Origin: Deltaproteobacteria bacterium
GTDB lineage: Bacteria > UBA10199 > JACPAL01
Assembly (NCBI GenBank): GCA_016180845.1
Contig: JACPAK010000001.1
Location: 86,836 to 150,835, forward strand
Reading direction: 5' to 3'
Length of the DNA stretch: 64,000 nucleotides
Both the position numbers and the translations under genes were made by a program. The notes under the pieces are model-generated. The model did not search any database, had not been told where the DNA came from, and saw only the letters and a list, made by a program, of their open reading frames with translations. This document shows, in pieces, positions 4,350 to 21,126 of this stretch; position 1 is the first letter of the stretch; each line of letters starts with the position of its first letter.

Positions 4350-4424
4350 GGAACACCCCCCGGACGCGATATCCCTCGTTCAGGACAGAGGCGTCAAGGG
4401 AGAAAATTCCCACACCGTCTTGTG

Positions 4425-4989
4425 TTAAAACCCGATCCTTCTTCTAGTCGGCACCACTGGTTTCATCAACTGCCGTATTGCATCGAATACAACCTTGAAT
4501 TGGGAATCATATCTCTTCTCCAGATTTTCAAGTTTTCGGGCGAGATCTTTGTGAGTGGTCAGAATCTGGCGAAGGCGACCAAATGTTCTCATGATTTCGA
4601 TATTAACGAGAATTGCCCGCCGGCTTCGAAGCACACTGGATAACATAGCGACCCCAAATTCGGTAAAGACATAAGGAAGATAGCGTCGTCCACCCCACTC
4701 ATTTGAGGTGCCAATTTGGCACCTCAAGATGGCAACCTCTTGATTATGGTTGATCAACTTTTGGTTAGTACATTTTTATTGATAAACCATAAGTATTTCT
4801 AACTTTTAGCGGGCACGTTCGTGCCCACCAAAAGTTGAAATGACGTTCGCGGTTTCTTTTGACAGCACGGTTAAGCACCTTGGCTTCTACCCCATAAAGC
4901 TCCGCAAGGGTCCGATCCAGCATTACCTTCTGTCCTCGGATCAGCAGGATTTTACTCTCAACCCTCTCTGCTGGTAACAGTGTGTTCAT
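4425..4989 (-). pseudogene. ORF6N/KilA-N-like (phage antirepressor-type) gene split into two frames
   Basis: ORF 4765-4989 carries the N-terminal ORF6N signature ([22 protein letters not shown]). ORF 4425-4757 carries the C-terminal part ([44 protein letters not shown]) in a different frame. The break coincides with a palindromic insert. Confidence 0.6.
4751..4842. repeat. imperfect palindromic insert (39-bp hairpin plus flanking inverted copies of caacttttgg) at the ORF6N frame break
   Basis: + strand 4799-4837 reads aacttttagcgggcacgttcgtgcccaccaaaagttg (arms gggcacg/cgtgccc and aactttt/aaaagtt). A further inverted copy, tcaacttttggtt, lies at 4754-4766. Removing about 74 nt between the outer copies restores one reading frame. 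Confidence 0.5.
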
Positions 4990-7364: not shown

Positions 7365-8081
7365 ATGTCTAGCAGCTCGCTGATCAAAGCGATCACCGTC
7401 ACCTTCGGCACCAACATGCTGGCCGATCTCGCTTCGGACAGGGTCCTCCATCCAGGCTACAAACTCGATTACGGATTGCTCAATCCACTCCTCGGCCGCG
7501 ATATGTATGAGCCTTTTTGGGGAACACGTCTGCAGCACCTTGTCGGTATCGCAGGATCGTTGACTTTGACCGAACATGTTTCTTCATCTATTTTTAGCTT
7601 TTTCTTGAGAAAGGCAAAAATCCTCAAGGCAACGGAAGATATCTTCAAAATCCATAAAACTCCGCTCTCCTATCTACTCCATAATTTCATCTCAGTTTTT
7701 TTGGGAGTTTTTATCTACTGTTCCCTCGATGCCCTCTTCAATCCCTTGTATAAGAAAGAAGGAGAGCGGATGGAAACATGGGAAAAAACACTCTTGCCGA
7801 CTGTTGCTGGAACCCCGTGGGCCCTTATCGAACCGGTACTCGGCTACGGTCTCAAAAAGGCATTCACCCCATGGGCTTGGCTTATACCTCATGCCAGTTT
7901 GACACTGAGACAAAAAACCAGTCTTTGGGTTTCTGATCTCTTGATCCCCGATATCGCCATCTATGGAACGATCAAGGGGTTTGGATGGCACGAATACGCC
8001 GATTACGGCCTGACCGATAGCGAGTTAAAATTAAACAGGATCTATTTCGAACGGGCGAAGCCAAAAACGATTCTTTACTAA
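7365..8081 (+). CDS. hypothetical protein
   Basis: 238-aa ORF sitting directly upstream of the Ehr-like operon. No recognisable motifs. Confidence 0.4.
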   Translation: MSSSSLIKAITVTFGTNMLADLASDRVLHPGYKLDYGLLNPLLGRDMYEPFWGTRLQHLVGIAGSLTLTEHVSSSIFSFFLRKAKILKATEDIFKIHKTPLSYLLHNFISVFLGVFIYCSLDALFNPLYKKEGERMETWEKTLLPTVAGTPWALIEPVLGYGLKKAFTPWAWLIPHASLTLRQKTSLWVSDLLIPDIAIYGTIKGFGWHEYADYGLTDSELKLNRIYFERAKPKTILY

Positions 8082-8171: not shown

Positions 8172-8196
8172 GATTGAATTCATAGGCTTGGACACC

Positions 8197-10176
8197 ATGA
8201 ACTACCTCATTTTTTCTTTGGGAATACTGCTCGTTTCCTTCTGTCTTACCTTTCTGGTCCAGACAGAAAAACAGAAGAGGTTTCTCTCCTGTGGGGGAGT
8301 CATTGCCGGATCCGTTCTCGGGATTATTCCAGCCTTGCAGGTCCTCACGAGTGGTATCCCTTCCAGGGTAACGAGCCTCGCCTCGCCGATCCCGGGGCTT
8401 GAGGTTTCACTCGGACTCGACCCTTTGAGCGCCTTTTTTCTCGTCGGCATTTACGGTCTTTCCGGTCTCGTTGGAATTTACAGCTGGGGTTATCTGAAAG
8501 ATCGACGGAGGCTCCTCCGAACGGCACCCTTCTTCCCGCTTCTCGTTGCCACCATGGCGACAGTCGTCGCCGCTCGCGACGGCTTCTTTTTTCTGATCGC
8601 CTGGGAGGTGATGTCACTCGCCTCCTTTTTTCTGGTCACTGCCGAGCACGAAAATAAAGAGGTCCGTCACGCGGGATGGATTTACCTTGTGGCGACACAC
8701 CTTGCGACTGCCTTTCTGATGGCCTTCTTCACCCTCCTTTATAAGAAGACAGGGACATTCTCTTTCGAGGCCTTTTCCCAGATCGGAGCTGTCTCACCAA
8801 CCCTCGCCAGTCTTCTTTTCGTTTTGGCCCTTGTCGGGTTTGGAACCAAGGCGGGGATTTTCCCCCTCCACGTCTGGCTTCCTTACGCCCATCCGGCAGC
8901 CCCAAGTTATATCTCGGCGCTGATGAGTGGGGTGATGATCAAGACAGGAATTTATGGGATCCTCCGCGCGCTGACCTTTTTGGGAGTGCCACCCCTCTGG
9001 TGGGGCGAACTCCTGGTCGGCCTCGGAATCCTGTCGGCGGTCCTCGGGGTCACCTACGCCCTGATACAACACGACCTGAAACAGCTCCTCGCCTATTCCA
9101 GTGTCGAAAACATCGGGATCATCGTAACGGGAATCGGGTTGGGATTGATCGGACTTTCTCGAAACCAACCAACCCTCACGCTTCTCGGATTCGGCGGATC
9201 CCTTTTTCACGTCTGGAACCATGCTATTTTCAAGGGGCTCCTCTTTCTGGGGGCTGGAAACGTCGTGCGTGTCGTCCACAGCAGGGCGATCGATCAGCTC
9301 GGAGGGCTCTTCAAAAACATGCCGTTCACGGGGGCAACCTTTTTTATCGCCTCGGCAGCGATCTGCGGACTTCCACCTCTGAACGGTTTTATCAGCGAAT
9401 GGTTGATCTACGTCGGTTTCCTGAAGGGTGTCACCTGGAGCTTCGGCCCATCCCTTTTCTTTTCTATTGCGGGAATCATTGGAATCGCCTTTTCCGGAGG
9501 ACTCGCGATCGCCTGCTTCACAAAGGTTGTGGGGGTTGTCTTTTTGGGAGAACCGCGTAGCGAACAGGCGGCAATCCCCTACGAGGTCTCTCGTCTCATT
9601 CTGGCCCCGATGGTGGTACTCGCCTTCCTCTGTCTTGCGTTCGGTCTCTATCCCCAGATCATCTGGTCCGCTGTTTTTTTTACCGTCAAATCCTTGCTGC
9701 CTTATGGGGCGATAGCGGAGCAAAATAGAATCCTCACCTCACTCTCCAGTATAAACGTCATTTTTTGGTTCGGTCTCGTTTTCTTTCTCGCCCTGGGCCT
9801 TTTAACTCAACTTATTGTCGGCAAGAGGCCAATTCGTCGCGCGGTTACCTGGGACTGTGGCTATGCCTCTCCAACACAACGGATGCAATACAGCGCCTCT
9901 TCTTTTGTAGAATCATTGGGGGTTTTTTTCGCCCCTCTCCTCAAACCCCAGACAGATCTCAAGAAACCTGCCGGTCTCTTCCCGCAACCAGGAAGCTTCG
10001 CAGAACAGGCAGAGGATCTCGCCGAACGGCGCCTCTTCAGGCCGCTCTTCAAGAGGACCGATCAATCCTTTTTATTTGTCCGAAAGATGCAGCAAGGGAA
10101 GATCCAGGCTTACCTTGCCCTCATCTTTGTGACCATCCTGGCCCTTCTGTTATGGGAGGTATGGTTTGGAATTTAA
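8197..10176 (+). CDS. NuoL/HyfB/HycC-like antiporter-type membrane subunit (complex I / group-4 hydrogenase family)
   Basis: About 660 aa and polytopic. Carries the conserved segment GFGTKAGIFPLHVWLPYAHPAAPSYISALMSGVMIKTGIYGILR typical of NuoL/M/N and Mrp antiporter subunits. An alternative TTG start lies at 8188. Confidence 0.8.
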   Translation: MNYLIFSLGILLVSFCLTFLVQTEKQKRFLSCGGVIAGSVLGIIPALQVLTSGIPSRVTSLASPIPGLEVSLGLDPLSAFFLVGIYGLSGLVGIYSWGYLKDRRRLLRTAPFFPLLVATMATVVAARDGFFFLIAWEVMSLASFFLVTAEHENKEVRHAGWIYLVATHLATAFLMAFFTLLYKKTGTFSFEAFSQIGAVSPTLASLLFVLALVGFGTKAGIFPLHVWLPYAHPAAPSYISALMSGVMIKTGIYGILRALTFLGVPPLWWGELLVGLGILSAVLGVTYALIQHDLKQLLAYSSVENIGIIVTGIGLGLIGLSRNQPTLTLLGFGGSLFHVWNHAIFKGLLFLGAGNVVRVVHSRAIDQLGGLFKNMPFTGATFFIASAAICGLPPLNGFISEWLIYVGFLKGVTWSFGPSLFFSIAGIIGIAFSGGLAIACFTKVVGVVFLGEPRSEQAAIPYEVSRLILAPMVVLAFLCLAFGLYPQIIWSAVFFTVKSLLPYGAIAEQNRILTSLSSINVIFWFGLVFFLALGLLTQLIVGKRPIRRAVTWDCGYASPTQRMQYSASSFVESLGVFFAPLLKPQTDLKKPAGLFPQPGSFAEQAEDLAERRLFRPLFKRTDQSFLFVRKMQQGKIQAYLALIFVTILALLLWEVWFGI

Positions 10177-11089
10177 CGTCCCATCACTCGTGCTCCATCT
10201 CGTTTTGATCGTCACGACCCCACCGTTTTTCCTCGGGGTAATCGCAAAGACGAAGGCCTTTCTGGCTGGCAGAAAGGGACCTCCCCTGCTCCAGATCTAC
10301 TACGATCTCTTAAGACTCTTTCGAAAAGGGACAGTCTACAGCCGAAGCTCCTCGATACTCCTTCGTCTTGCCCCCGTCATGATCGTCGCATCCATTTTTT
10401 CGAGCAGCCTCCTGGTCCCCTTGCTCAAGACCGCACCGATTCGGTTTGAGGGGGATCTGATCCTCTTCGCTTACCTCCTGGGGCTCGTCCGATTTATGAC
10501 GATCCTCGCCGCCATGGACGTCGGTTCCAGTTTTGAGGGGATGGGGGCCAGCCGCGAGGCGAGTCTGGGGGCCCTCACAGAACTCGCCTTCTTCCTCGGG
10601 CTGGTAGCCCTTTCGGCGATGACCCGCTCGACCTCACTCACTGCGATCTTCGAGTGGGAGGGGGGACATCCTTTTTGGAACCCGGCCCTTCTAATCCTCT
10701 TCGCCACTTTTTCCCTGATCCTCTTGACCGAAAATTCCCGGATGCCGATCGATGATCCGACAACACATCTGGAACTCACGATGATCCATGAGGTGATGAT
10801 CCTCGATTACAGCGGACCGGATCTGGCGCTTATCCTCTACGGAGCCTCCATGAAACTCTTCCTCTTCATGGCGTTTACCTCCTCGCTTCTCTGGCCTCCC
10901 ACGACGGCTAACATCTGGATGGGGGGCGGTTGGTTGATCTTGAAGGTTACAGGGATGTCGATCGCGATCGGTCTGATCGAATCGGCGAATGCCCGCCTGC
11001 GCCTGATCAAGATCCCGCAACTCCTGGTCGCGAACTTTGTCGCCGCAGCGCTCGGTCTCGCGATTATCCTTATCGGAAGGGGGGTATAG
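10166..11089 (+). CDS. NuoH/HycD/HyfC-like membrane subunit
   Basis: 307 aa. The N-terminus (LAGRKGPPLLQIYYDLLRLFRKG) matches HycD/NuoH. TTG start with GGGAGG 6 nt upstream. Overlaps the preceding gene by 11 nt. Confidence 0.75.
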   Translation: MEFNVPSLVLHLVLIVTTPPFFLGVIAKTKAFLAGRKGPPLLQIYYDLLRLFRKGTVYSRSSSILLRLAPVMIVASIFSSSLLVPLLKTAPIRFEGDLILFAYLLGLVRFMTILAAMDVGSSFEGMGASREASLGALTELAFFLGLVALSAMTRSTSLTAIFEWEGGHPFWNPALLILFATFSLILLTENSRMPIDDPTTHLELTMIHEVMILDYSGPDLALILYGASMKLFLFMAFTSSLLWPPTTANIWMGGGWLILKVTGMSIAIGLIESANARLRLIKIPQLLVANFVAAALGLAIILIGRGV

Positions 11090-11092
11090 ATT

Positions 11093-11725
11093 ATGGAATG
11101 GTTCTTGACCGGCATTATCGTGACAACCTTCTTCATCCTGGGGGCGTCACGGCTCGCCCCCTGTATCCGGATCGCAGCGGTCCAAGGGGCGATGCTCTCC
11201 GTCCTGCCGATCCTGGCCCGCGGGTCGGTGACCGATCCGCACAGTTTGGGGATGTTTTTTGGAACCTTTCTCATCAAGGCGATCCTCATTCCGATCCTGC
11301 TTTTTCGCTCCCTGCGACAGTCCAAGATTCGTGAGGAAATGGAACCGACCGTCAGTCGTCACCTGTCGCTCCTGGCAGGCGGTCTCGTGGTGGTTCTCTC
11401 CTTTTCGTGGCAACTCCCTAACCTTCCCGGCTCTCACTCTCCCCTCATCGTCCCGACAGCGCTGGCGATGGTCCTTTTGGGGTTTCTGCTTCTCGTGACG
11501 CGCCGTAAGGCGGTGACACAGGTGATCGGATTTCTGGTCCTCGAAAATGGTGTCTTTCTCTTCGGAATGACACTCGCCACCGAATTCCCGATAACGGTGG
11601 AGATGGGGGTTTTGCTTGATCTCCTTGTCGGCGTGTTCGTCATGGGAATCATGATCAATCATATCAATCGAACCTTTGATCACATCGACACAACATTGCT
11701 CGCTTCACTGAGGGAGACCGAATGA
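11093..11725 (+). CDS. HyfE-like small membrane subunit of group-4 hydrogenase-type complexes
   Basis: 210 aa with about 6 TM helices. Position and size match HyfE (E. coli 216 aa). Confidence 0.55.
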   Translation: MEWFLTGIIVTTFFILGASRLAPCIRIAAVQGAMLSVLPILARGSVTDPHSLGMFFGTFLIKAILIPILLFRSLRQSKIREEMEPTVSRHLSLLAGGLVVVLSFSWQLPNLPGSHSPLIVPTALAMVLLGFLLLVTRRKAVTQVIGFLVLENGVFLFGMTLATEFPITVEMGVLLDLLVGVFVMGIMINHINRTFDHIDTTLLASLRETE

Positions 11726-13164
11726 TACCGATCCTCCTTGTGGCGCTGCCAACCTTTTTGGGAATCGTCACCCTCCTGATTCGAGGGGAAAAAAGACGAA
11801 AGATTCGTCGGCTCTTTCTCATCCTGGGAGCTCTTGCGCATGCGGCAGGAACAGGTTGGCTCCATATCCGGCCGGAGGAAAAATCCCTTATGGGACTCAT
11901 CGAGGTCGATCCCTTGGGGCTCCTCTTCCTGACGATCACAAGCCTCCTTTTCCTTATCTCGTCGATCTATAGTCTCGGTTATTTCCAACATGAACGTACG
12001 AAATATACCGAGGAGGGGGTGAGCCACCTCTATGTCCCTTGCATGCTCTTCTTCCTCGCCTCCATGACACTCACAACCTTCGCTTCCCAATTGGGAATCC
12101 TCTGGATTGCCATCGAGGCCACCACTATCGCCTCGGCCCCCCTCATCTATTACCATCACCATCACCAGGCGCTCGAGGCAGCCTGGAAGTATCTCCTCAT
12201 CTGTTCCGTCGGGATCGCGATCGCCCTCCTCGGAATCTTTTTTGTCGCTGCTTCAGCGAAGGGAAACGTCGCCGATCTCTCACTCTCGACGATGATCGCT
12301 TCAGCAAGATCTCTCGACGCGCGCTGGTTTCGGGCTGGCTTTCTGCTGATCCTTGTCGGGTTTGGAACAAAGATGGGCTTGGCACCGCTGCATAGCTGGC
12401 TCCCGGACGCCCATAGCGAGGCCCCCTCTCCTGTCTCGGCCCTCTTGTCAGGTGCGCTTCTGAACTGCGCCTTCCTGGGGATCCTTCGATTCTATCAAAT
12501 CCTGATTGCGGCGGGACTTGCCGATTTCGCTGGCAGGGCGCTGACACTCCTGGGGCTCTCCTCGCTCTTCATCGCGACCGTCTTCATCACCGGACAACGG
12601 GATTATAAACGGCTGCTCGCCTACTCCAGTGTGGAACACATGGGAATTATGGCATTGGGCCTCGGCTGGGGGGCCAAATTCGGGGTGCTGCTCCATGCGG
12701 TCAATCACTCCCTCACGAAGGGGCTTTTGTTTCTTGTCGCCGGCCAGATCCTGATCGCCTATCGAACAAAAAATTGCTCCGAAGTTCAGGGACTCATCAG
12801 GACAATCCCAGCAACAGGACTTCTCTTTCTTGTTGGAATCTTCGCCATCATCGGTTCCCCCCCCTTCGGTCCCTTCGTCAGCGAATTTTTGATCCTGCGA
12901 GAAGGCCTCGGCAGAGGGCATCCGGTCGGCTCTTTTCTCTACCTCCTCTTCTTAGGCGTCATTTTTATCTCAATGTCACGCATCGTCCTTGGAATGATCC
13001 AAGGGGAAAAACGGGATATCCTGCCGGGAGAAGCCCCTTCGCGACTCATGGTCTTCCCGCCGGTCGTGCTTGCCGTCGCTGTCTTCCTCTTCGGCCTCTA
13101 TATTCCGGAGTCAATGGTTTCCTTCCTCAAAACCGCCTCTCAACTGATTGGAGGGGGTTCATGA
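11722..13164 (+). CDS. NuoM/NuoN/HyfF-like antiporter-type membrane subunit
   Basis: 480 aa. Conserved GFGTKMGLAPLHSWLPDAHSEAPSPVSALLSG segment. The stop overlaps the next gene's start in an ATGA. Confidence 0.8.
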   Translation: MIPILLVALPTFLGIVTLLIRGEKRRKIRRLFLILGALAHAAGTGWLHIRPEEKSLMGLIEVDPLGLLFLTITSLLFLISSIYSLGYFQHERTKYTEEGVSHLYVPCMLFFLASMTLTTFASQLGILWIAIEATTIASAPLIYYHHHHQALEAAWKYLLICSVGIAIALLGIFFVAASAKGNVADLSLSTMIASARSLDARWFRAGFLLILVGFGTKMGLAPLHSWLPDAHSEAPSPVSALLSGALLNCAFLGILRFYQILIAAGLADFAGRALTLLGLSSLFIATVFITGQRDYKRLLAYSSVEHMGIMALGLGWGAKFGVLLHAVNHSLTKGLLFLVAGQILIAYRTKNCSEVQGLIRTIPATGLLFLVGIFAIIGSPPFGPFVSEFLILREGLGRGHPVGSFLYLLFLGVIFISMSRIVLGMIQGEKRDILPGEAPSRLMVFPPVVLAVAVFLFGLYIPESMVSFLKTASQLIGGGS

Positions 13165-14618
13165 CTTTTTCAGCGACCAAGAATGCCTCACCTGTTTTGA
13201 TTTCCGAGATTCCGATTCTCACCCTTGAAGACTGGCGGCTCTGGATCCTGGAGACCTGTCAGAAAAACGGTGGCCGCATCGTTTCGCTTTTGGCCCATCA
13301 GGAAAAAGAAACCGTTCGGATCTATGGAATCCTCGGGATTGATTCCAAAGGAGAATTACAGATTGCCGGTCTCGATCTTCAAAACAAAAAGTATCCCTCT
13401 CTGACACCTGATCTCCCTGAGGCGCATCTGTTTGAGAGAGAGCTTTTTGAACAGAGCGGCATCGTCCCTGAAGGACACCCCTGGCTGAAACCGGTCCGAC
13501 AGCTTGCCAACTATCCCTTTTATCAAATGGCCGGGGAGGAGATTCATGAAGTGGCAGTAGGACCGGTCCATGCCGGGATTATTGAACCGGGACATTTCCG
13601 GTTCCAATGCCATGGTGAGAAGGTCTTTTATCTGGAAATCCAGCTAGGCTATCAACACCGTGGGCTAGAACAACTCATCGTCACGTCAAACCCAAGTCGC
13701 CGTGCGGTCCTCGCCGAATCGATCGCCGGCGATACCGTGATCGGTCATGGACTTGGCTTTTGCCACGCCATCGAAGGACTTTCCCAAGCAGAGGTCCCAC
13801 AAAGAGCGAAGGGACTCCGCGCTATCGCGCTGGAACTTGAAAGACTCGCGAACCATTCGGGAGATCTCGGGGCCTTGGCCGCCGATATCGGTTTTCTGCC
13901 AGCAAGCGCCTGGTTCGGGAGGCTTCGGGGGGAATTTTTAAATCTCTTGATGGAGCTCACAGGAAATCGGTTTGGCCGATCTTTCTTGAGGCCGGGCGGG
14001 GTGCTTTTTGATCTCACAAACGAGATGATCATTGATTTCAAGAAACGGATCCTGCATGCCGCCTCGGAGATGAAGGAGATCTCTGACCTTTTCTTCAACG
14101 CCTCGTCAGTTCTTGCGCGACTGGAACATACAGGAGTCGTCGCAACAGAGACCGCAAGGGGCTTGGGAATGGTGGGGCCTGCGGCACGCGCGAGCAATCT
14201 CGTACGTGACGTGCGCCACGACTATCCCACAGAATTCTACCGCCTTTTCCCCATCCCTCCGATGAGACTGACCACAGGGGACGTCTCTGCTCGTGCACGC
14301 ATCCGATCATTAGAAAGCAAAAGATCCTCTGAATTTATCCTGAAACAGCTCGACACGCTCACGTCGGACAAGATCCTTGGCACCTGCGAAGAACCAAGGG
14401 GCTCATCCCTGGTCGTGAGTCTCGTCGAGGGGTGGAGGGGAGAGATCGCGCATATCGTCCTGACCGATGAGAGGGGAGAGATCATGAGGTACAAGATCGT
14501 CGATCCCTCATTTCATAACTGGATGGCATTGGCCTTGGCGATGCGGGACGGACAGATCTCCGATTTCCCGCTCTGCAATAAGAGTTTTAATTTGTCGTAC
14601 GCTGGACATGATTTGTAG
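13161..14618 (+). CDS. fused NuoC-NuoD / HycE-like 'large subunit' lacking NiFe-binding cysteines (Ehr-type)
   Basis: 485 aa. N-terminal NuoC-like part, then a NuoD/HycE-like part (EPGHFRF, GYQHRGLEQL). Where HycE has RVCGICGFAH this protein has ESIAGDTVIGHG, and where HycE has DPCYSCTDR it has DPSFHNW. RBS GGAGGGGG precedes the ATG. Confidence 0.8.
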   Translation: MTFSATKNASPVLISEIPILTLEDWRLWILETCQKNGGRIVSLLAHQEKETVRIYGILGIDSKGELQIAGLDLQNKKYPSLTPDLPEAHLFERELFEQSGIVPEGHPWLKPVRQLANYPFYQMAGEEIHEVAVGPVHAGIIEPGHFRFQCHGEKVFYLEIQLGYQHRGLEQLIVTSNPSRRAVLAESIAGDTVIGHGLGFCHAIEGLSQAEVPQRAKGLRAIALELERLANHSGDLGALAADIGFLPASAWFGRLRGEFLNLLMELTGNRFGRSFLRPGGVLFDLTNEMIIDFKKRILHAASEMKEISDLFFNASSVLARLEHTGVVATETARGLGMVGPAARASNLVRDVRHDYPTEFYRLFPIPPMRLTTGDVSARARIRSLESKRSSEFILKQLDTLTSDKILGTCEEPRGSSLVVSLVEGWRGEIAHIVLTDERGEIMRYKIVDPSFHNWMALALAMRDGQISDFPLCNKSFNLSYAGHDL

Positions 14619-14629
14619 AGGTAGCATCT

Positions 14630-15325
14630 ATGTGGGAAATTCTTAAAAATCGTTGGCGGCAGGGATACCGAACACTGAAATTTCCGGAAGAAGCGCTTCT
14701 TCCCGAACGTTTTCGGGGAAGGCCAATCCTCACAGATGGGAACCCACTCGATCTCGGGAAATGCCTCTTCTCGCCGGATGATAATGTGGTCTACTCTCGT
14801 GATTACCGGATGGCTGTCCGCAAAAGGGAAGATTTGATTTTGAAGGGAGAGGAAATCAAGTTGGCAACAGCATTGGATAAGAAAATGAGGAAACTCTTTG
14901 GACGATCGCTGAAGCTCCGGGCGGTTTGTGCCGGAAGCTGTAACGGGTGTGATCTCGAGCTTCAGGCATTGAATAACGTCGTCTTCGACCTTTCACGATT
15001 CGGGATACAATTTGTCGCATCGCCCCGTCATGCCGATGGCCTTGTCGTCACAGGACCTGTGACCGAAAATATGAAACTCGCCCTCAAAAAAACCTACGAG
15101 GCAGTTCCCGATCCGAAGATCGTGATTGCGGTAGGCGCCTGCGCTATCAGTGGTGGACCTTTCGAGGGAAGTCCCGAGGTGAATAACGGCGCTGACAAGA
15201 TACTCCCCGTCGATCTCTACATCCCTGGTTGCCCGCCGCATCCACTCACGATTCTTGATGGACTCTTGAGACTTTTGGGGAGGATCGAAGCCAATTCTTC
15301 CAGATTGACCGCTTGCAAGGCCTGA
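14630..15325 (+). CDS. NuoB/HycG-like small subunit with [4Fe-4S] ligands
   Basis: 231 aa. VCAGSCNGCDLEL aligns to HycG VDCGGCNGCEIEI. GACAISGG and PGCPPHP are conserved. About 100-aa N-terminal extension. Confidence 0.8.
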   Translation: MWEILKNRWRQGYRTLKFPEEALLPERFRGRPILTDGNPLDLGKCLFSPDDNVVYSRDYRMAVRKREDLILKGEEIKLATALDKKMRKLFGRSLKLRAVCAGSCNGCDLELQALNNVVFDLSRFGIQFVASPRHADGLVVTGPVTENMKLALKKTYEAVPDPKIVIAVGACAISGGPFEGSPEVNNGADKILPVDLYIPGCPPHPLTILDGLLRLLGRIEANSSRLTACKA

Positions 15326-16323
15326 TTTCTTACCGAACTGGCCTCAGGGAAATAGCGCAAATAACCGGACAGGTGTTTACGCACCTTCCTGAGATCATCG
15401 CCTGCCTCTGCGTAGAGCGAGGCATGTTCCAGCGCCACCATCGCACGTCTTTCATAGGAAATATTGAGTGGGTCAATCCCTTGAAAAAGCCATGGATTGC
15501 CGATGGCGCTCCGTCCGATCAAGACTCCATTGACGCCAGTTTTCTGGATGAGGGAGGTCGCTTGGGTGAGCGATTCGATGTCACCATTTCCTAAAATAAG
15601 GGTGCCGCTTCCGCGAGCCACTGCCACCGCCTCCGCAATCGCCTCCCAATGGGCAAGCCCCCGATACATCTGTTTCAAGGTGCGACCATGTATCGAGATC
15701 ACCGCGGGTGATTGCTGTAGCAGGGTCTCGACCCACCGATCGATAATGATGGCATCATAACCGATCCGTGTCTTGATCGAGTAGGGAATCGGCCGCCTGA
15801 CCACGAGTCTCTCTGCCCCGATTCGAGCCGAGTTCATGCGGCAAACGGTGGCAATGACCCGTTCCGAAAGCTTGAGCTCTTCCAGCGTTTGTCCTCTTGA
15901 CCAATCCTGAATCGCGTGACGGACCGCCTTGATGATCTCGATCGCAAGATCGGGTGCCGTGATCAACTTGGCCCCGCAGTTTTTTTCGACCACTTTTTTT
16001 GAGGGACAGCCCATGTTGATATCGACCCCATCAAAGCCGAGTTCGCAAACAACATGGGTCGCCTTGTAAAAATCATCCGGGTCATGGCCATAGATCTGGG
16101 CGACAACCGGCCTCTCAATCTCGCTGTATCGAAAATCGTTCAGGATCCTTTCGGGGGCGTAAAAGAGTCCCTCGGCAGTCGTGAACTCGGTAAAGAGGAC
16201 ATGGGGCCGCCCATGCCTCGCCATGATCGCACGACAGGCAAAGTCGGTGACCCCATCCATCGGCGCAAGCGCAATGATCGGTTGGCAGAGGTTTTTCCAA
16301 AATCCTAAAAAAGGAGACGTCAT
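15217..16323 (-). CDS. tRNA-dihydrouridine synthase (DusB-like)
   Basis: TIM-barrel Dus motifs (APMDGVTD, GVDINMGCP, IHGRT). The start is placed at the internal ATG at 16323 (MTSPF...). The 3' end overlaps the convergent small-subunit gene. Confidence 0.75.
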   Translation of the reverse strand: MTSPFLGFWKNLCQPIIALAPMDGVTDFACRAIMARHGRPHVLFTEFTTAEGLFYAPERILNDFRYSEIERPVVAQIYGHDPDDFYKATHVVCELGFDGVDINMGCPSKKVVEKNCGAKLITAPDLAIEIIKAVRHAIQDWSRGQTLEELKLSERVIATVCRMNSARIGAERLVVRRPIPYSIKTRIGYDAIIIDRWVETLLQQSPAVISIHGRTLKQMYRGLAHWEAIAEAVAVARGSGTLILGNGDIESLTQATSLIQKTGVNGVLIGRSAIGNPWLFQGIDPLNISYERRAMVALEHASLYAEAGDDLRKVRKHLSGYLRYFPEASSVRNQALQAVNLEELASILPKSLKSPSRIVSGCGGQPGM

Positions 16324-16364
16324 TTTGTGCCTTATATAGTATGGGGTTCCTGAGGACAATGAGA

Positions 16365-16916
16365 ATGAAGCTTTATCTGGCATCAACATCGCCCCGCCGG
16401 AAGAATCTTTTGGCCAGATTGGGGATACCTTTCGAAGTCGTCCCACCCACCTTCCTCGAACATGAGACAACACTCACTCCTTCAGAAGAGACCCTTCTCT
16501 TCGCCGAAGAAAAGGCACGCTCAATCGCTTCCCCCCCTCCGAATGCCCTGATACTTGGTTGTGACACCTTGATCGCGTGCGACGGCCAGAAGCTTGGCAA
16601 ACCCGAAGATGCCGCCGATGCGAAACGGATCTTGAAAATTCTCTCAGGCAAGACACACGAGGTCCATACGGCGTTGTTCCTTTTAGACACTCAAAATGGC
16701 TCTTCTAAAAGGCATCTCGAAACAACGCGAGTGACTTTCCGAAGACTTTCTGATCCAGAGATTGCCACCTATGTCGCGACGGGTGAGCCATTCGGCAAGG
16801 CAGGGGCCTACGCGATTCAGGGAAGAGCGAGGGGTTTTATCACGAAGATCGAGGGGGACGAGGAATCGGTGATTGGGTTGCCGCTGAAAATTCTTAGGGG
16901 ATGGCTCGGTTCTTGA
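16365..16916 (+). CDS. maf: Maf-family nucleoside triphosphate pyrophosphatase
   Basis: MKLYLASTSPRRKNLL N-terminus and Maf signature motifs. Start chosen at the third in-frame Met. Confidence 0.8.
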   Translation: MKLYLASTSPRRKNLLARLGIPFEVVPPTFLEHETTLTPSEETLLFAEEKARSIASPPPNALILGCDTLIACDGQKLGKPEDAADAKRILKILSGKTHEVHTALFLLDTQNGSSKRHLETTRVTFRRLSDPEIATYVATGEPFGKAGAYAIQGRARGFITKIEGDEESVIGLPLKILRGWLGS

Positions 16917-16986
16917 CAGAGACTCACCTAGTGAGCGAGCATTGATCGGATCCTGGTTCTTTGAAAACAAGTTTTTGAGATGTCCC

Positions 16987-17333
16987 GGGGGCGAATTGGA
17001 TTCGACGAGAGTGCTGACGGCACCAGTCGCAGGTCGAGGTCGCTGGACCCTCGTTAAACACTGGCAAAAACCTAAATGACAATAGCGTAAGCTATGCCAT
17101 GGCTGCTTAATTAGCCGCCCGTTCTCAATGTCCGCTCCCACCGGGTGTTGATGGACGCAACATGTGGGATGCTCATCTGACCGGGACGCTGGGTCAGATG
17201 TTAAGACATACAGTGTCTGGTCTTCCGGCCCCGGTCTTGGAGGTCACCGGAAGATGAGAAACAAACCAAGGCTAAGCCTGTAGTGACTTTGCTCGATCAC
17301 CTTCGGACGCGGGTTCGATTCCCGCCGCCTCCA
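16987..17333 (+). ncRNA. ssrA: tmRNA (SsrA)
   Basis: 5' GGGGGCGAAUUGGAUUCGACG (tRNA-like domain) pairs with 3' ...GCGGGUUCGAUUCCCGC CGCCUCC A (T-arm plus acceptor). Internal tag ORF ggc aaa aac cta aat gac aat agc gta agc tat gcc atg gct gct taa at 17063-17110, giving (G)KNLNDNSVSYAMAA. Confidence 0.9.
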
Positions 17334-17398
17334 CAAAAAAATCGGCTCGAACCGTAATGAAGGAATCTTCACCGGTGGATCCGGATGTGGTAGCTTGA

Positions 17399-18553
17399 TC
17401 ATCTCCCTCGATAAAGGGCCGCAACTGGAATGCAGCGAATGTCTTCGATACTGTAATAATCTTCCCCCAAATAGAACAGGTATCCGCTCCTATTCTCTTT
17501 ATCCATACCAACAAACTCCTTGAGGTTGTTAATGTCTTTTCTGGAAGGGCGAAGGGTTGATTTTATTTCCACAGCCTTGAGTTTCTGATTTTCTACAAGA
17601 ATAAGGTCAATTTCAAAACCGGAGTTATTCTTATAAAAAAACAGCTGATCCGTTTTATAAAACCCAAGTTTCCGCCTTTTCTCGATTTCAGAGATAACGA
17701 AATTTTCCACAATCTGTCCCCTGCTACACTGCGTACCCAAAGCGGAGATCATCCCTGTATCACAATAATAGGATTTTGATCCCTTAACGTATCTCTTGGA
17801 AGGACCATGCTGATATCCTGCCAAAGTAAAACCCAAACCGGATTGATAGAGACTCTGTAAATATTTCTTTGCTGTAATGTGGTTTAAATTGGCCTCATGT
17901 CTGAAATTTTCAATCTGTGTAATGTTGCCGATGGAAAGGGCGTAATGATTCAACATGGCCCGCAGGCCCGTAACATCCTGTATATTGGAAAGTAGACTTA
18001 AGTCTCTGGTGAAGTAGGTATTGCGATAATTCTCCAATATTTCTTTTTTCTCTGTTTCATCTTTGGCCGAGACGACTTCTGGAAAACCACCATACTTTAA
18101 AAATGATTCTAATTTCCGCTGTGCTTGAAGGATTTGAGGGAGGGAAGCCTGATCTTCAAAAATGGAATGTGTTGGCTCACCGAATTCTTCCCCCCAACAA
18201 CAAGGGGGTAATTCCAAAATTTGTATGCGCCCCGCCAACGAGTCTGCCGATGCATCCAACAATCCGATTCGACTGGAACCGCTCATCAAAACAGTAGCCA
18301 CCTGTTCGTCGATGGAAAATTTTGCCGCAATCGTTAGCCTCGGAACACGCTGTATCTCATCGAGGATTACCTTGGGGTTACCTTCCAAAAGGGCCTTGGG
18401 GTCTTTCTCAGCCAAGGCGAGTACGTCCAGATCATCCAATGTCAAGTATTTGAAATCAGGGAAGTTTTTCTTTAAATACATGCTCTTTCCTGCCCTTCTA
18501 GGGCCTAAAATTAAAGCGCTTTTAGCAGGTTTTCTAAGCCATCTATCAAACAT
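17399..18553 (-). CDS. AAA-family ATPase (Walker A GPRRAGKS; AAA_14 + DUF4143-type architecture)
   Basis: 384 aa with a P-loop near the N-terminus and a C-terminal region typical of DUF4143 ATPases. Markedly AT-richer than flanking DNA. Lies 66 nt after the tmRNA 3' end. Confidence 0.65.
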   Translation of the reverse strand: MFDRWLRKPAKSALILGPRRAGKSMYLKKNFPDFKYLTLDDLDVLALAEKDPKALLEGNPKVILDEIQRVPRLTIAAKFSIDEQVATVLMSGSSRIGLLDASADSLAGRIQILELPPCCWGEEFGEPTHSIFEDQASLPQILQAQRKLESFLKYGGFPEVVSAKDETEKKEILENYRNTYFTRDLSLLSNIQDVTGLRAMLNHYALSIGNITQIENFRHEANLNHITAKKYLQSLYQSGLGFTLAGYQHGPSKRYVKGSKSYYCDTGMISALGTQCSRGQIVENFVISEIEKRRKLGFYKTDQLFFYKNNSGFEIDLILVENQKLKAVEIKSTLRPSRKDINNLKEFVGMDKENRSGYLFYLGEDYYSIEDIRCIPVAALYRGR

Positions 18554-18624: not shown

Positions 18625-21126
18625 TTAAGGAGCTTTTCCCATCCCAACCGACAGACACGACCCGGTCAGTTCCTCAATGAGATTGATCTTCAGATCATCG
18701 CCGATATTGCGAATCCGGAGTTGAGGGGTCGCATCCGGTTGGACTTCGATCGCCTCAAGTCGAAGTCGGAGCCGCTGACGGTCGAAGCCACAGGCAGCCG
18801 CCTCGCGGGGAAGGAGCGTCGGCTCTGATTCCTCGGCATCGATAAAAATCCTTTCAACAACCACACCACCCGCCTCACTGGGGGCCCTATCTTCAACACT
18901 CTCGACCGTCATCTGAATCGGCATCTTTTTCCGGACCCGGAAAGGAATCTTCACCGGTGGATCCGATAACGAAATCGCCGCCTGACCTGTCAACTCCCCT
19001 GAAAGAGACATGTGGTCAAAGAAGGCCTCCATCAATTCCAGAGAACCATCCTCGGCCGGTTGAATCTTCAGACGATGCCCCATAAAACGGGCATTCGTAA
19101 TATTTAAACGAAGATCGTTCCATCGCACAAAGGCCTGGTGTGTGGAAAAAACAGCCCCACCCGGATGTTCTGCGAGAATTTCAACCTCTCGACGTTGTGG
19201 GACGATCTGAACCGAGCCTTCGACATCCAGATCCGCTTCGGCAACCCTCGTTGAGAAAATTCCCTCACGACTCCTGTTACTGACCCGTAGACCAAGGGTT
19301 GGTAAATCGGCATGCAGCTTGGCATTGCTAATAGAAATACGAGTATGATTCGGATTTTTCTCATCGGAACCTATGGAGAGAGGCGCGATGCCGGCAAGGG
19401 GACGAAATTTAATCTGCCCTAATCCCTGAATAGCGCCATCTGGAAAGTGATACGAGACAACCCCATCCATCTGGCTCGTGATGATCCCCTCGAAGCGGGG
19501 TCTCCCATTCACAACCTGAAAGTGGACATCGGCCAGACCGGCCCCTTCGGGGATTTCATTCAACCACTTATGGTCTCCCTCGAATTGCCGTCGTTTTGCG
19601 ACAGTATGCAATGAAACCCCATGCCCATCATATTTGAGCTCGCCGGTTCGAAGCTGTTCAATCGAGACATCAGGGGTCAGACCATCAAGTCGGACGGTAA
19701 AATTCTTCACCTCACCACCTTGAGGGAGCTCCAGTTTGGAAAGGACCTTTCCGTTCGACCTCGAAATCTCTTCCAATTTTAATCCATCGTTATGATTCCA
19801 GCTAAAAGCAGCGGCAAGTTCCCTCGTATTCCGCGGATTCAGGGAAACCGCCACCTTCAGAGGGGTTGGGGTACGAGCGGTATTGCTGGCCCGAATCAGT
19901 CGCTCCGGATGGACGTATTCAATCGTCTTCAGACCGGCGATCTCGACTGTCGGTGAAAAAAGCCCACCGCGAATCGCAATCCGATGCCCCCCTGGCGGGA
20001 CCTTCCCCGTGAATTCAAGTCGCAACTTTCTCACCTTTTTTGGATCCATCCTTTTTTGAAGATCGGTCTCCAGATCGACCTCGATCGTGCGATTCGAAAA
20101 ATCACCGGTGATCTCGATGGTCGCTTGTTGCCAACGAGGGATTGTTCCCAAAAATTCTGAGTTGAGCTTTTTCTCTGTTTTGGCGGGTACATGAGCTGAA
20201 CTCTGAAATCCCCCCTTGCCCCCCTTTGACAAAGGGGGGTTGGGGGGATTTTCTTTCTCACTCCCCCCCAAAATCATCCCGACAAGCTGATGAAGATGCT
20301 CGGGGACGCGATAAACAGGAAGTCCCCTCTTCTCAAAATCCCTTTTCGTGATCCCACCGGCATCGAAGACCATCTTTCCCCCCTCCACCGTAAGATCAAA
20401 AAAGAGATAGTTCGCCGTGACGAAAACGGCCCTATCTGGCGTCTCCTGTTCCAATTTTTCACGATAGGACTCCACAAGAAGACCGGCCAACGGAAGGGCC
20501 GAAACCACCTGCAACCAGAGCGGGAGGATTTTTTTATCCTCATCAACCATCTCGACCGCTTTCCCACGTACAGAGACCCATGGGCCAACAATCGGAATAC
20601 CTGTAAAAAATTTTAGCCACGGCTTGAGCGGGATCGGACCGACCGGTGGTTTTGAGACAAGGCGAATCTCTCTGATTTCTCCTCCCTCCCCAACCTCAGC
20701 GACAAACTTGAGTTGGAAGGGGGACTGGGGGAGATCGGCCTCCAAGGGAAGTTGGACCTCGGCACGGATCTTCAAGTTCGGAACTGGCGAAGCTTCTCCA
20801 GATGCGGTTTCGAAAAGTCCTCGCACAAGTCGTTCGACAAAGGCGCTTCGCGGTTCCTCAACAACTGCTTTGTCCCGAAATCGCGCAGCGGAAACAGCAA
20901 CCGGGGGTCTTTCGCAATAAGGTTTTGAGGGAGTTGCTTGGCAATAATAATCTCTCTGACCGATCCCAAAGTGTTCCCTCGGAAGGTCCGAGAACCTGTC
21001 TGAGACCCACCTTGAAACCGAACGATTTTCCGCAGGGAAGCCTTGGACCGGAGGAAAATCGTTCGATGGTGCCGGGCGAGTTTCGCAGGACCTGGAGAGA
21101 GGACACGAGGGATCGGTCGGCCTCAT
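18625..21126 (-). CDS. large hypothetical protein (833 aa), beta-rich, no recognised domain
   Basis: Long uninterrupted ORF whose start overlaps the upstream gene's stop in an ATGA. An internal hydrophobic segment ILPLWLQVVSALPLAGLLV is present. Two in-frame palindromic repeat insertions. Confidence 0.5.
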   Translation of the reverse strand: MRPTDPSCPLSRSCETRPAPSNDFPPVQGFPAENRSVSRWVSDRFSDLPREHFGIGQRDYYCQATPSKPYCERPPVAVSAARFRDKAVVEEPRSAFVERLVRGLFETASGEASPVPNLKIRAEVQLPLEADLPQSPFQLKFVAEVGEGGEIREIRLVSKPPVGPIPLKPWLKFFTGIPIVGPWVSVRGKAVEMVDEDKKILPLWLQVVSALPLAGLLVESYREKLEQETPDRAVFVTANYLFFDLTVEGGKMVFDAGGITKRDFEKRGLPVYRVPEHLHQLVGMILGGSEKENPPNPPLSKGGKGGFQSSAHVPAKTEKKLNSEFLGTIPRWQQATIEITGDFSNRTIEVDLETDLQKRMDPKKVRKLRLEFTGKVPPGGHRIAIRGGLFSPTVEIAGLKTIEYVHPERLIRASNTARTPTPLKVAVSLNPRNTRELAAAFSWNHNDGLKLEEISRSNGKVLSKLELPQGGEVKNFTVRLDGLTPDVSIEQLRTGELKYDGHGVSLHTVAKRRQFEGDHKWLNEIPEGAGLADVHFQVVNGRPRFEGIITSQMDGVVSYHFPDGAIQGLGQIKFRPLAGIAPLSIGSDEKNPNHTRISISNAKLHADLPTLGLRVSNRSREGIFSTRVAEADLDVEGSVQIVPQRREVEILAEHPGGAVFSTHQAFVRWNDLRLNITNARFMGHRLKIQPAEDGSLELMEAFFDHMSLSGELTGQAAISLSDPPVKIPFRVRKKMPIQMTVESVEDRAPSEAGGVVVERIFIDAEESEPTLLPREAAACGFDRQRLRLRLEAIEVQPDATPQLRIRNIGDDLKINLIEELTGSCLSVGMGKAP
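20206..20252. repeat. family-1 palindromic repeat (aaatccccccTTGcccccctttgaCaaaggggggTTGgggggatttt), copy 1, intragenic and in frame
   Basis: Read directly. A near-identical copy sits at 63710-63760. Here it encodes ENPPNPPLSKGGKGG within the 833-aa ORF. Confidence 0.7.
21018..21066. repeat. family-2 hairpin repeat (13-14-bp arms ccgaacgattttcc / ggaaaatcgttcg around a 21-nt spacer), copy 1, intragenic and in frame
   Basis: Perfect inverted arms at 21019-21031 and 21053-21065. A second copy at 62277-62325 has the spacer in reverse-complement orientation. Here it encodes NDFPPVQGFPAENRS. Confidence 0.7.

Follow-up and report, generated by a model that had tools for sequence, protein, structure and literature searches.

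A six-gene operon for an Ehr/Hyq-type complex

We analysed a 64,000-nt stretch of DNA from a Deltaproteobacteria bacterium (contig JACPAK010000001.1; hereafter the window, to which all coordinates refer unless a related locus is named). On its + strand lies a tight operon of six genes in the order HyfB-HyfC-HyfE-HyfF-large subunit-small subunit, and these genes almost certainly encode an Ehr/Hyq-type complex, a six-subunit 'core complex I' relative. Ehr denotes the (energy-converting, or Ech-) hydrogenase-related complex, and Hyq is the name for the version in alphaproteobacterial diazotrophs. The large subunit, encoded by gene 5, has no Cys at any of the four positions that ligate the [NiFe] centre in hydrogenases. 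The small subunit retains the ligands of the proximal [4Fe-4S] cluster, and the electron-relay domain fused to it has lost both of its clusters, that is, two of the three iron-sulfur clusters of the family.

The large-subunit gene (13161..14618, + strand) encodes 485 amino acid residues. Its start codon, an ATG, shares bases with the stop of the gene upstream (ATGA), and a GGAGG lies ahead of it. The product is a NuoC::NuoD-like fusion of the EhrL/HyqG type without [NiFe] ligands (Pfam PF00329 and PF00346), in which a NuoC-like N-domain is followed by a NuoD/hydrogenase-large-subunit domain, as in Escherichia coli HycE. A protein identical to it is present at NCBI, labelled as a 'Deltaproteobacteria bacterium' protein from a metagenome-assembled genome (MAG). 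The small-subunit gene (14630..15325, + strand) encodes 231 residues, with a NuoB/HycG-like domain preceded in the same chain by what is left of a HycF/NuoI-type domain (Pfam Oxidored_q6, 5e-33). Gene content and Pfam/NCBIfam searches gave no NuoEFG, NuoA, NuoJ or separate NuoI in the operon, which consists of the six genes only. The operon and its flanks contain no separate HycF/HyfH relay subunit and no HycB/HyfA or FdhF electron-input module, and no hycI, hyp, fdh or ferredoxin gene was found within the 64-kb window.

The large subunit has no Cys at the four [NiFe] ligand positions

The large subunit was aligned by HMMER with PDB sequences and by MAFFT with 120 database homologs together with HycE and HyfG. 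An earlier note on this DNA, written from the sequence alone, had stated that all four [NiFe]-ligating Cys are replaced, with SIAGDTVIGH as the counterpart of HycE RVCGICGFAH. HMMER and MAFFT agree on this counterpart. The L1 motif RxCGxCxxxH corresponds to ESIAGDTVIGH (13716..13748, + strand), in which C241 is replaced by A189 and C244 by T192 around an invariant G190-D191. At the C-terminus the earlier note had equated DPCYSCTDR with DPSFHNW, which proved to be wrong. DPSFHNW (14502-14522) aligns to HycE AATYANW and Nqo4 APSFVNL, a motif general to the fold. SLDPCYSCTDR instead has its counterpart at the very end of the protein, in the final 11 residues, SFNLSYAGHDL-stop (14583-14618), which belong to the C-terminal signature ISDFPLCNKSFNLSYAGHDL-stop (14556..14618, + strand). 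In this counterpart of the L2 motif DPCxxCxxR, D529 is replaced by N477, C531 by S479 and C534 by G482. The conclusion on the missing Cys stands despite the misplaced motif, because none of the four ligand positions (A189, T192, S479 and G482) holds a Cys in either alignment; the misaligned Cys that could have overturned it did not appear.

The replacements, all of them small residues, are fixed in the family: Ala is found in 117, Thr or Ser in 119, Ser in 119 and Gly in 119 of the 120 homologs, respectively. The large subunit ends exactly at the position of mature HycE R537, indicating that it has no maturation extension. The alignments support the view that this subunit would be unable to bind a canonical [NiFe] centre. 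Whether other Cys residues (C33, C150, C200 and C472) might rebuild a metal site was considered from their position in the sequence and their conservation. C33 lies in the NuoC-like domain, C200 is not invariant, and C150 (FQCHGE, 13608-13610) is invariant in Ehr-type relatives but Ala in Rhizobium Hyq. Only C472 (PLCNKSF, 14574-14576), a conserved Cys seven residues upstream of the C531 position, is common to Hyq, where it corresponds to Azorhizobium caulinodans Cys-491.

Fold and remodelled pocket of the large subunit

The best phmmer match of the large subunit in the PDB was HycE (7z0s_E, 1.3e-41), followed by MbhL (2.8e-34) and Nqo4 (1.2e-29). The AlphaFold2 model, built from a 53-sequence alignment, had a mean predicted local distance difference test score (pLDDT) of 87.9 and a predicted template-modelling score (pTM) of 0.90, the β1-β2 loop and the five C-terminal residues of the monomer being the sole parts of low confidence. 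Foldseek against the PDB placed HycE of the E. coli formate hydrogenlyase (FHL) first (7z0s_E; TM score 0.90, root-mean-square deviation 3.2 Å, E 3e-29), and the fused NuoCD of E. coli complex I ranked lower. The NuoD equivalog models were failed by a wide distance (NF004739, 174 bits against a cut-off of 360; TIGR01962, 131 against 459). The protein is thus HycE-like rather than a standard NuoD, in line with the earlier note, which had held it to be not NuoD-like enough and had proposed this comparison with HycE and Nqo4.

Pocket residues were assigned through alignment to the residues named in the FHL cryo-EM paper (PMC9474812). In HycE, the β1-β2-loop residue E193 swaps protons with Cys531 (PMC9474812). 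The corresponding loop of the window protein, VGPVHAGIIEPGHFRF (13557..13604, + strand), carries this hydrogenase-type Glu as E142, is invariant in the 120 homologs and is near-identical in Rhizobium HyqG; E142 itself is retained in 120/120. Further residues of the canopy and proton path are kept at 99-100%, namely S283 (as N231), H284 (H232), R395 (R343), E437 (E385) and R478 (R426). The canopy Asp D529 has been called strictly conserved across the superfamily (PMC9474812), and its position is occupied by Asn (N477) in 118 of the 120 homologs. The L1 Arg position is Ser (S187), and an invariant D191 stands between both former L1 Cys positions. D191, N477 and the C-terminal H483/D484 are new invariant polar residues. 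Nor are the quinone ligands of complex I present, their identities being taken from established knowledge and PMC9474812: the position of Nqo4 Tyr87 is G190, and that of His38 falls on I141/E142, in the loop with Glu instead.

As the replacement motifs are near-invariant and the surrounding proton-path residues are kept, the pocket appears to be remodelled under constraint and not decayed; its residues would make it no NiFe site and no quinone site of the complex-I type. The earlier note had suggested a pocket that is empty or different, with a quinone-like or unassigned substrate site. Its 'different' is borne out by the invariant replacements and the kept proton path, while a quinone site is to be taken as a hypothesis only, the complex-I ligands being absent.

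The small subunit keeps the proximal cluster and has lost the relay

Conservation of the cluster ligands was scored in 73 relatives. The first two ligands of the proximal (N2-position) [4Fe-4S] cluster, C104 and C107, lie in CNGC (14939..14950, + strand), which is 100% conserved and aligns with CNGC/CNAC of HycG/HyfI. The third, C171, lies in GACAISGG (15134..15157, + strand; 100% conserved) and the fourth, C201, in PGCPPH (15224..15241, + strand; 99% conserved). The earlier note had assigned the proximal ligands to CAGSCNGC, GACAISGG and PGCPP. CNGC, GACAISGG and PGCPP do align with HycG/HyfI, but the first Cys of CAGSCNGC (C100) is no cluster ligand, because it is Ser in 86% of relatives.

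Residues 1-75 (14630..14854, + strand) are the relic of a 2×[4Fe-4S] relay domain, as found by alignment with the 73 relatives and HycF/HyfH. The relic retains the N-terminal helix/loop (MWEILKNRW...FRGRP) and the C-terminal strand (YSRDYRMAVRKREDLI). In-frame deletions have taken out the first Cys motif entirely and the second for the most part, and the sole remaining Cys is C45. In most relatives the small subunit is 250-260 residues long, and its first ~120 residues form an intact two-[4Fe-4S] domain (Cx3Cx2Cx3CP ... CxxCxxCxxxCP). The best PDB match of this intact domain is MbhN (6.7e-15), followed by HycF (2e-12), MbsN and Nqo9. The small subunit of the relatives can therefore be read, from these matches, as a HycF/NuoI-type relay subunit fused to a NuoB-like subunit. 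The AlphaFold2 model of the small subunit of the window was poor (pLDDT 46) and was not interpreted.

At least eight Cys are kept in 58 of 75 species-representative loci, and at least one relay Cys is lost in at least 17 of the 75. Among the 120 closest small-subunit homologs, 105 have only 0-3 Cys in the relay domain, and some of these are full-length yet Cys-free. The DNA of the small-subunit gene is identical in two independent read-set assemblies, and relatives with 74-78% large-subunit identity have the same small-subunit architecture. Assembly error as the cause of the deletions is thereby ruled out, and together with the 105 Cys-poor homologs these observations show that the deletion is real.

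A rough neighbour-joining (NJ) tree without support values places the window together with L084 (1 Cys; L-numbers denote related loci fetched for comparison), inside a clade whose next members, L003 and L085, have an intact relay (the small subunit of L085, 9494-10270, was used as the intact one for comparison). L004 and L005, in which the whole relay core is missing, form a separate branch. Since this branch stands apart from the window and L084, the tree suggests at least two independent relay losses within the clade of the window alone. Two other candidates for a reduced or missing small subunit were rejected. The truncated 169-residue small subunit of L086 differs from that of L085 only in the choice of start codon, the DNA being identical over the aligned small-subunit region. 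L083 seemed to have no small subunit, but the gene is displaced by an insertion of ~1.8 kb and resumes at 4775. L083 is the closest relative on record (78% identity), and the insertion that splits its large- and small-subunit genes (3077-4589) carries a Gp49/HTH_37 toxin-antitoxin-like pair and a 260-residue gene, all three on the opposite strand.

Membrane subunits and flanking genes

Upstream of the large-subunit gene the operon encodes four membrane subunits, all on the + strand. The HyfB/EhrA-like antiporter-type subunit (8188..10176; 662 aa) matched Pfam Proton_antipo_M at 1e-54 and the NCBIfam model of hydrogenase 4 subunit B with 610 bits, below its cut-off of 667. It is followed by a HyfC/HycD/NuoH-like subunit (10166..11089; 307 aa; Pfam NADHdh, 7e-35), a HyfE-like subunit (11093..11725; 210 aa; NCBIfam hydrogenase 4 membrane subunit HyfE, 2.6e-22, with Pfam Oxidored_q2 in the C-terminal half) and a HyfF-like antiporter-type subunit (11722..13164; 480 aa; NCBIfam hydrogenase 4 subunit F, 2.8e-109). 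These Pfam and NCBIfam matches and the comparison of loci agree with the Hyf-type gene order with a HyfE homologue that had been described in the earlier note.

Residues E140, K221, K252 and E404 of the HyfB-like subunit match E142, K221, K252 and E407 of E. coli HyfB, and E132, K217, N248 and E388 of the HyfF-like subunit follow the same pattern as E. coli HyfF. In the NuoH-like subunit, the equivalents of NuoH E157, D213, E220, R291, R46 and D63 are conserved at 99-100% in the family. By alignment, the predicted charged transfer residues of the NuoH-like and both antiporter-like subunits are thus kept.

The rest of the window is ordinary chromosome, with genes for, among others, aldehyde dehydrogenases, an aminotransferase, Dus, Maf, DnaG, RpoD, β-oxidation and RNase E/G. 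The small-subunit gene (+) and the convergent dihydrouridine synthase gene (−) overlap at their 3′ ends by ~109 nt (15217-15325), and the same overlap is called in L087, an independent assembly. At 18625-21126 and 21123-23948 on the − strand lie two neighbouring, overlapping large open reading frames (ORFs) of 833 and 941 residues without a Pfam match.

Family membership

Coppi reportedly named the Geobacter sulfurreducens genes GSU0739-0745 (EhrA, EhrC, EhrL (GSU0744), EhrS and others) 'Ech-hydrogenase-related' in 2005, and the name 'energy-converting hydrogenase-related' is said to come from Marreiros et al. (BBA, 2013). Ehr complexes have been described as lacking the NiFe ligands, with the function unassigned (PMC6349859, PMC10284858, PMC10432482). 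The G. sulfurreducens cluster GSU0739-45 comprises NuoL-like, HyfE-like, large (EhrL) and small (EhrS) subunits, and its proteins were detected and regulated, being most abundant on formate (PMC7894505). In Azorhizobium the genes are hyqRBCEFGI. HyqG is a NuoC::D fusion, and both CxxC motifs are missing in all HyqG (Sprecher et al. 2012, PMC3357923). HyqI has four Cys for an N2-type cluster, and Hyq was described as the six-subunit core of complex I (PMC3357923). Rhizobium leguminosarum bv. viciae is among the listed hyq carriers (PMC3357923).

We assigned the operon to this family by sequence through the Hyq-type locus of Rhizobium johnstonii 3841 plasmid pRL11 and an Ehr-type locus of a Variovorax plasmid, and to Geobacter Ehr by its published description. 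As expected for Ehr/Hyq (PMC6349859, PMC10284858, PMC3357923), the large subunit has group-4 [NiFe] large subunits and NuoD as homologs and lacks both CxxC motifs. The NuoB/HycG-like small subunit has the four conserved Cys for an N2-position [4Fe-4S] cluster, and the gene order B-C-E-F-G-I is the same in the Rhizobium pRL11 and Variovorax loci. The large subunit of the window is 45% identical to that of Variovorax, 35% to that of Rhizobium, 28% to HycE and 19% to NuoCD. The three Ehr/Hyq proteins have in common the GD(S/T) motif and the C-terminal DFPLCNKSF(N/D)xSYxG(H/N)DL-stop, and the β1-β2 loop reads HAGIIEPGHFRF in the Rhizobium protein and HASVIEPGHFRF in the Variovorax protein; loop, GD(S/T) and C-terminal DFPLCNKSF..SY.G.DL together make up the sequence signature common to Hyq. 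On the Variovorax plasmid (L092), a second Hyf-like cluster (hyfB, nuoH-like, hyfE-like and hyfF; 13643-17470) lies 3.4 kb downstream of the Ehr-type operon.

Within the family, the complex of the window resembles Ehr as described in its large subunit without NiFe Cys, its NuoB-like small subunit, its NuoL-, NuoH- and HyfE-like membrane subunits and the wide spread of its kind, which includes Nitrospirota, Elusimicrobiota and deltaproteobacterial lineages. It differs in that most Ehr-type relatives have the fused 2×[4Fe-4S] domain intact, whereas the window copy has only the cluster-free relic. With Hyq it has in common the gene order, the NuoC::D-fused HyqG-type large subunit without CxxC, the β1-β2 loop, the C-terminal DFPLCNKSFNxSYxGHDL signature, a small subunit with the N2-type cluster only, as in HyqI, and the lack of a functional relay, the Rhizobium small subunit (177 aa) having no relay domain. 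However, Hyq branches outside the Ehr clade in the rough NJ tree; the two further conserved Cys of HyqG, Cys-258 and Cys-497 in A. caulinodans numbering, are absent in the large subunit of the window; and the pRL11 locus has a distinct short helix-turn-helix regulator gene upstream. The relay-less state in the lineage of the window appears to have arisen independently of Hyq.

The window copy does not have the features of a group-4 [NiFe] hydrogenase, which are a four-Cys L1/L2 pair, a separate relay or input module, a C-terminal extension and, so far as the 64-kb window reaches, hyp maturation genes. E. coli Hyf/Hyc (FHL; PDB 7Z0S) is close to it nevertheless. In both sequence and fold the top match is HycE, and the two systems agree in the NuoC-like fusion, in HyfE and the order of the Hyf genes, in the CxxC-type proximal-cluster motif and at the proton-path positions E193, S283, H284, R395, E437 and R478. 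By contrast with FHL, the window copy has no NiFe ligands, has Asn for D529, lacks HyfA/HycB, HyfD, HyfJ and FdhF, and has HyfH/HycF reduced to the fused cluster-free relic. The Q-module of complex I (NuoB/NuoCD/NuoH; Nqo4/6/8) is similar in fold, N2-position cluster, NuoH-like coupling residues, absence of NiFe and an Asp, D242, equivalent to Nqo4 D139. The differences from it are G190 for Tyr87, the loop Glu for His, a hydrogenase-type CNGC for the tandem SCC of NuoB, equivalog scores below cut-off, and the lack of a nuoA-N operon with NADH module (NuoEFG), NuoA and NuoJ.

Pyrococcus MBS (Mbx), the membrane-bound sulfane reductase, is a group-4 relative that has lost NiFe chemistry and uses the pocket by the proximal cluster for another substrate. 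In MbsL two of the four Cys are still present, a 13-subunit arm of the Mrp type lies in the membrane, and the MbsN relay is intact. The sequence relation of MbsL to the window protein is far weaker than that of HycE (MbsL 6u8y_L, 71 bits, vs 146 bits for HycE).

Distribution, neighbourhood and selection

In a collection with one genome per species, relatives were encoded on at least 583 confirmed stretches of genome sequence, of which 80 loci with 48-70% identity were retained for comparison. The 80 loci came from more than 10 phyla, the sources being deltaproteobacterial MAGs, Omnitrophota, Planctomycetota, Verrucomicrobiota, Elusimicrobiota, Nitrospirota, Acidobacteriota, Binatia, Zixibacteria, Methylococcaceae and others. 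The six-gene order is preserved in essentially all of these loci that are sufficiently long. A tandem second HyfB-like gene occurs in L024, L027, L030, L031, L056, L058 and L073, which recalls the EhrA-1 naming in Geobacter.

The only recurrent neighbour, in 42 of the 80 loci, is an upstream same-strand protein of ~236 residues with HTH_17 and PTS-EIIA-2 domains, located immediately upstream of the operon (for example L085 2370-3053 and L048 4227-4937). From its domains, it may be a phosphorelay-controlled regulator of the operon. It is absent from the window, which instead has an unrelated 238-residue ORF (7365-8081) with no Pfam match and no homolog in the fetched loci.

The ratio of non-synonymous to synonymous substitution rates (dN/dS) between the operons of the window and L084, which are 74% identical and both relay-less, was 0.06-0.13 for all six genes and ~0.14 for the relic. 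dS was near saturation in this comparison, and the proportion of non-synonymous differences (pN) was far below that of synonymous differences (pS). All six genes are under strong purifying selection. As both operons compared lack the relay, the complex remains functional with a single cluster whose partners on either side have been lost.

Discussion

The loss of the Cys ligands beside a retained N2-type cluster is not new. It was described in papers of 2009-2013, and as the observation and the inference of a different site were already stated in the Ehr/Hyq literature, their appearance in the earlier note is a rediscovery. That note missed both the published family and the deletion of the relay clusters, from which the retained cluster is normally supplied. 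The best overall explanation of the locus, to which we give a probability of roughly 0.6, is an Ehr/Hyq-type complex with a proton-coupled redox site tied to ion translocation. The redox-coupled mechanism as such we put forward more tentatively. In such a mechanism the remodelled pocket would still perform proton-coupled chemistry beside the cluster, and the charge change at the pocket would be coupled to ion movement through HyfC, HyfE, HyfF and HyfB. Coupling of this kind has been proposed as the conserved core mechanism of FHL, the membrane-bound hydrogenase MBH and complex I (PMC9474812). The substrate might be a membrane quinone, as has been suggested for Hyq and Ehr, or a small soluble molecule. 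Because the fused relay domain has lost both clusters, the usual chain is closed to electrons, which would have to move straight between the single cluster and either a docking carrier or the substrate in the pocket.

Several points weigh against a redox-coupled site of this kind. No Ehr has a demonstrated biochemical function. Without NiFe and the relay clusters, the single buried cluster has no obvious second electron partner, no redox partner gene lies within the 64-kb window, and no electron-input gene (FdhF, HycB/HyfA, NuoEFG or ferredoxin) recurs in the flanks of the 80 loci. Electron input may even be dispensable, since the relay was lost repeatedly under continued purifying selection. 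The absence of the Tyr87 and His38 equivalents speaks against a quinone in the pocket, and some Ehr-bearing organisms are reported to lack quinone biosynthesis (PMC6349859). The pocket residues, moreover, were placed by alignment.

The main rival takes up these points. It holds the complex to be a redox-independent, Mrp-like secondary cation/proton transporter. The role of the peripheral arm would then be only that of a cap, structural or regulatory, with a cluster that is structural or acts as a redox sensor. The NiFe ligands, the quinone ligands and, here, both relay clusters are gone, yet all six genes keep a dN/dS of 0.06-0.13; several branches have each lost or eroded the relay on their own (at least 17 of 75 loci, and 0-3 Cys in 105 of the 120 closest homologs); the antiporter residues are intact; no redox partner gene is conserved nearby; and the sole recurrent neighbour is the HTH_17 and PTS-EIIA regulator of 42/80 loci. 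Against a transporter, the four cluster ligands are conserved at 99-100%. A mere cap would hardly explain why a proton path of the hydrogenase and complex-I kind leads to the pocket and why new polar residues in it are invariant, most of the wider family (58 of 75) keeps all eight relay Cys, and known Mrp antiporters, by established knowledge, need no NuoB/D/H-like module. We therefore regard this explanation as unlikely, though not negligible.

Decidedly less probable is a specific version of redox coupling in which the polar pocket (E142, D191, T192, N477, S479 and H483/D484, with C472 near) would hold a non-thiolate metal or substrate and catalyse proton-coupled redox chemistry. The single N2-type cluster and the membrane pool would be the sole supply of such a site, and the 'endo-hydrogenase' Hyq would be one example of it. 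If this were true, the relay-less lineages, in which all else is kept under selection, would demonstrate that a cytoplasmic electron chain is dispensable for the catalytic core.

No hydrogenase chemistry is known to work without Cys-ligated Ni/Fe, Fe-guanylylpyridinol or the H-cluster, and this tells against a Cys-free hydrogenase, that is, against H2:quinone oxidoreduction at a non-canonical site of the large subunit through the N2-type cluster only, as claimed for Azorhizobium Hyq. The six-subunit architecture and the large-subunit signature are as in Hyq, neither the hydrogenase-type Glu (E142) nor the proton path has been lost, and hyq deletions have reported H2-evolution and H2-uptake phenotypes, from which an H2:quinone oxidoreductase was proposed (PMC2650096, PMC3357923). 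The Hyq evidence is nevertheless genetic and physiological only; its authors themselves call the NiFe site of HyqG 'uncertain, if not unlikely' (PMC3357923), later authors consider Ehr unlikely to be a hydrogenase (PMC10284858), and the window has no hyp genes. We give this explanation little credence.

Pseudogenisation and misalignment are excluded by the data. A decaying, non-functional hydrogenase remnant might be suspected from the loss of the catalytic ligands and the in-frame deletions in the small subunit, but the low dN/dS of all six genes, the absence of frameshifts and stops, replacement motifs that are invariant across phyla, the same gene sequence in independent assemblies and the detected and regulated Geobacter Ehr proteins leave it almost no room. 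That a standard NiFe large subunit or a standard NuoD is hidden by an alignment artefact, as the wrong C-terminal alignment of the earlier note might suggest, has a vanishing probability, the corrected HMMER and MAFFT alignments still having no Cys at the ligand positions, the NuoD equivalog score lying far below cut-off and NuoEFG, NuoA, NuoJ and a separate NuoI being absent.

In evolutionary schemes Ehr/Hyq complexes sit between group-4 hydrogenases and complex I, and their carriers include nitrifiers, Planctomycetota and Verrucomicrobiota. The chemistry of the pocket would bear on how complex-I-type machines couple chemistry to ion pumping and on whether the disputed 'hydrogenase' activity of Hyq is real. 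On the missing Cys ligands the locus adds little. It does offer, as a modest addition, a natural 'minimal', relay-less version with one cluster, which limits the possible mechanisms and might serve structural and biochemical studies well as a target.

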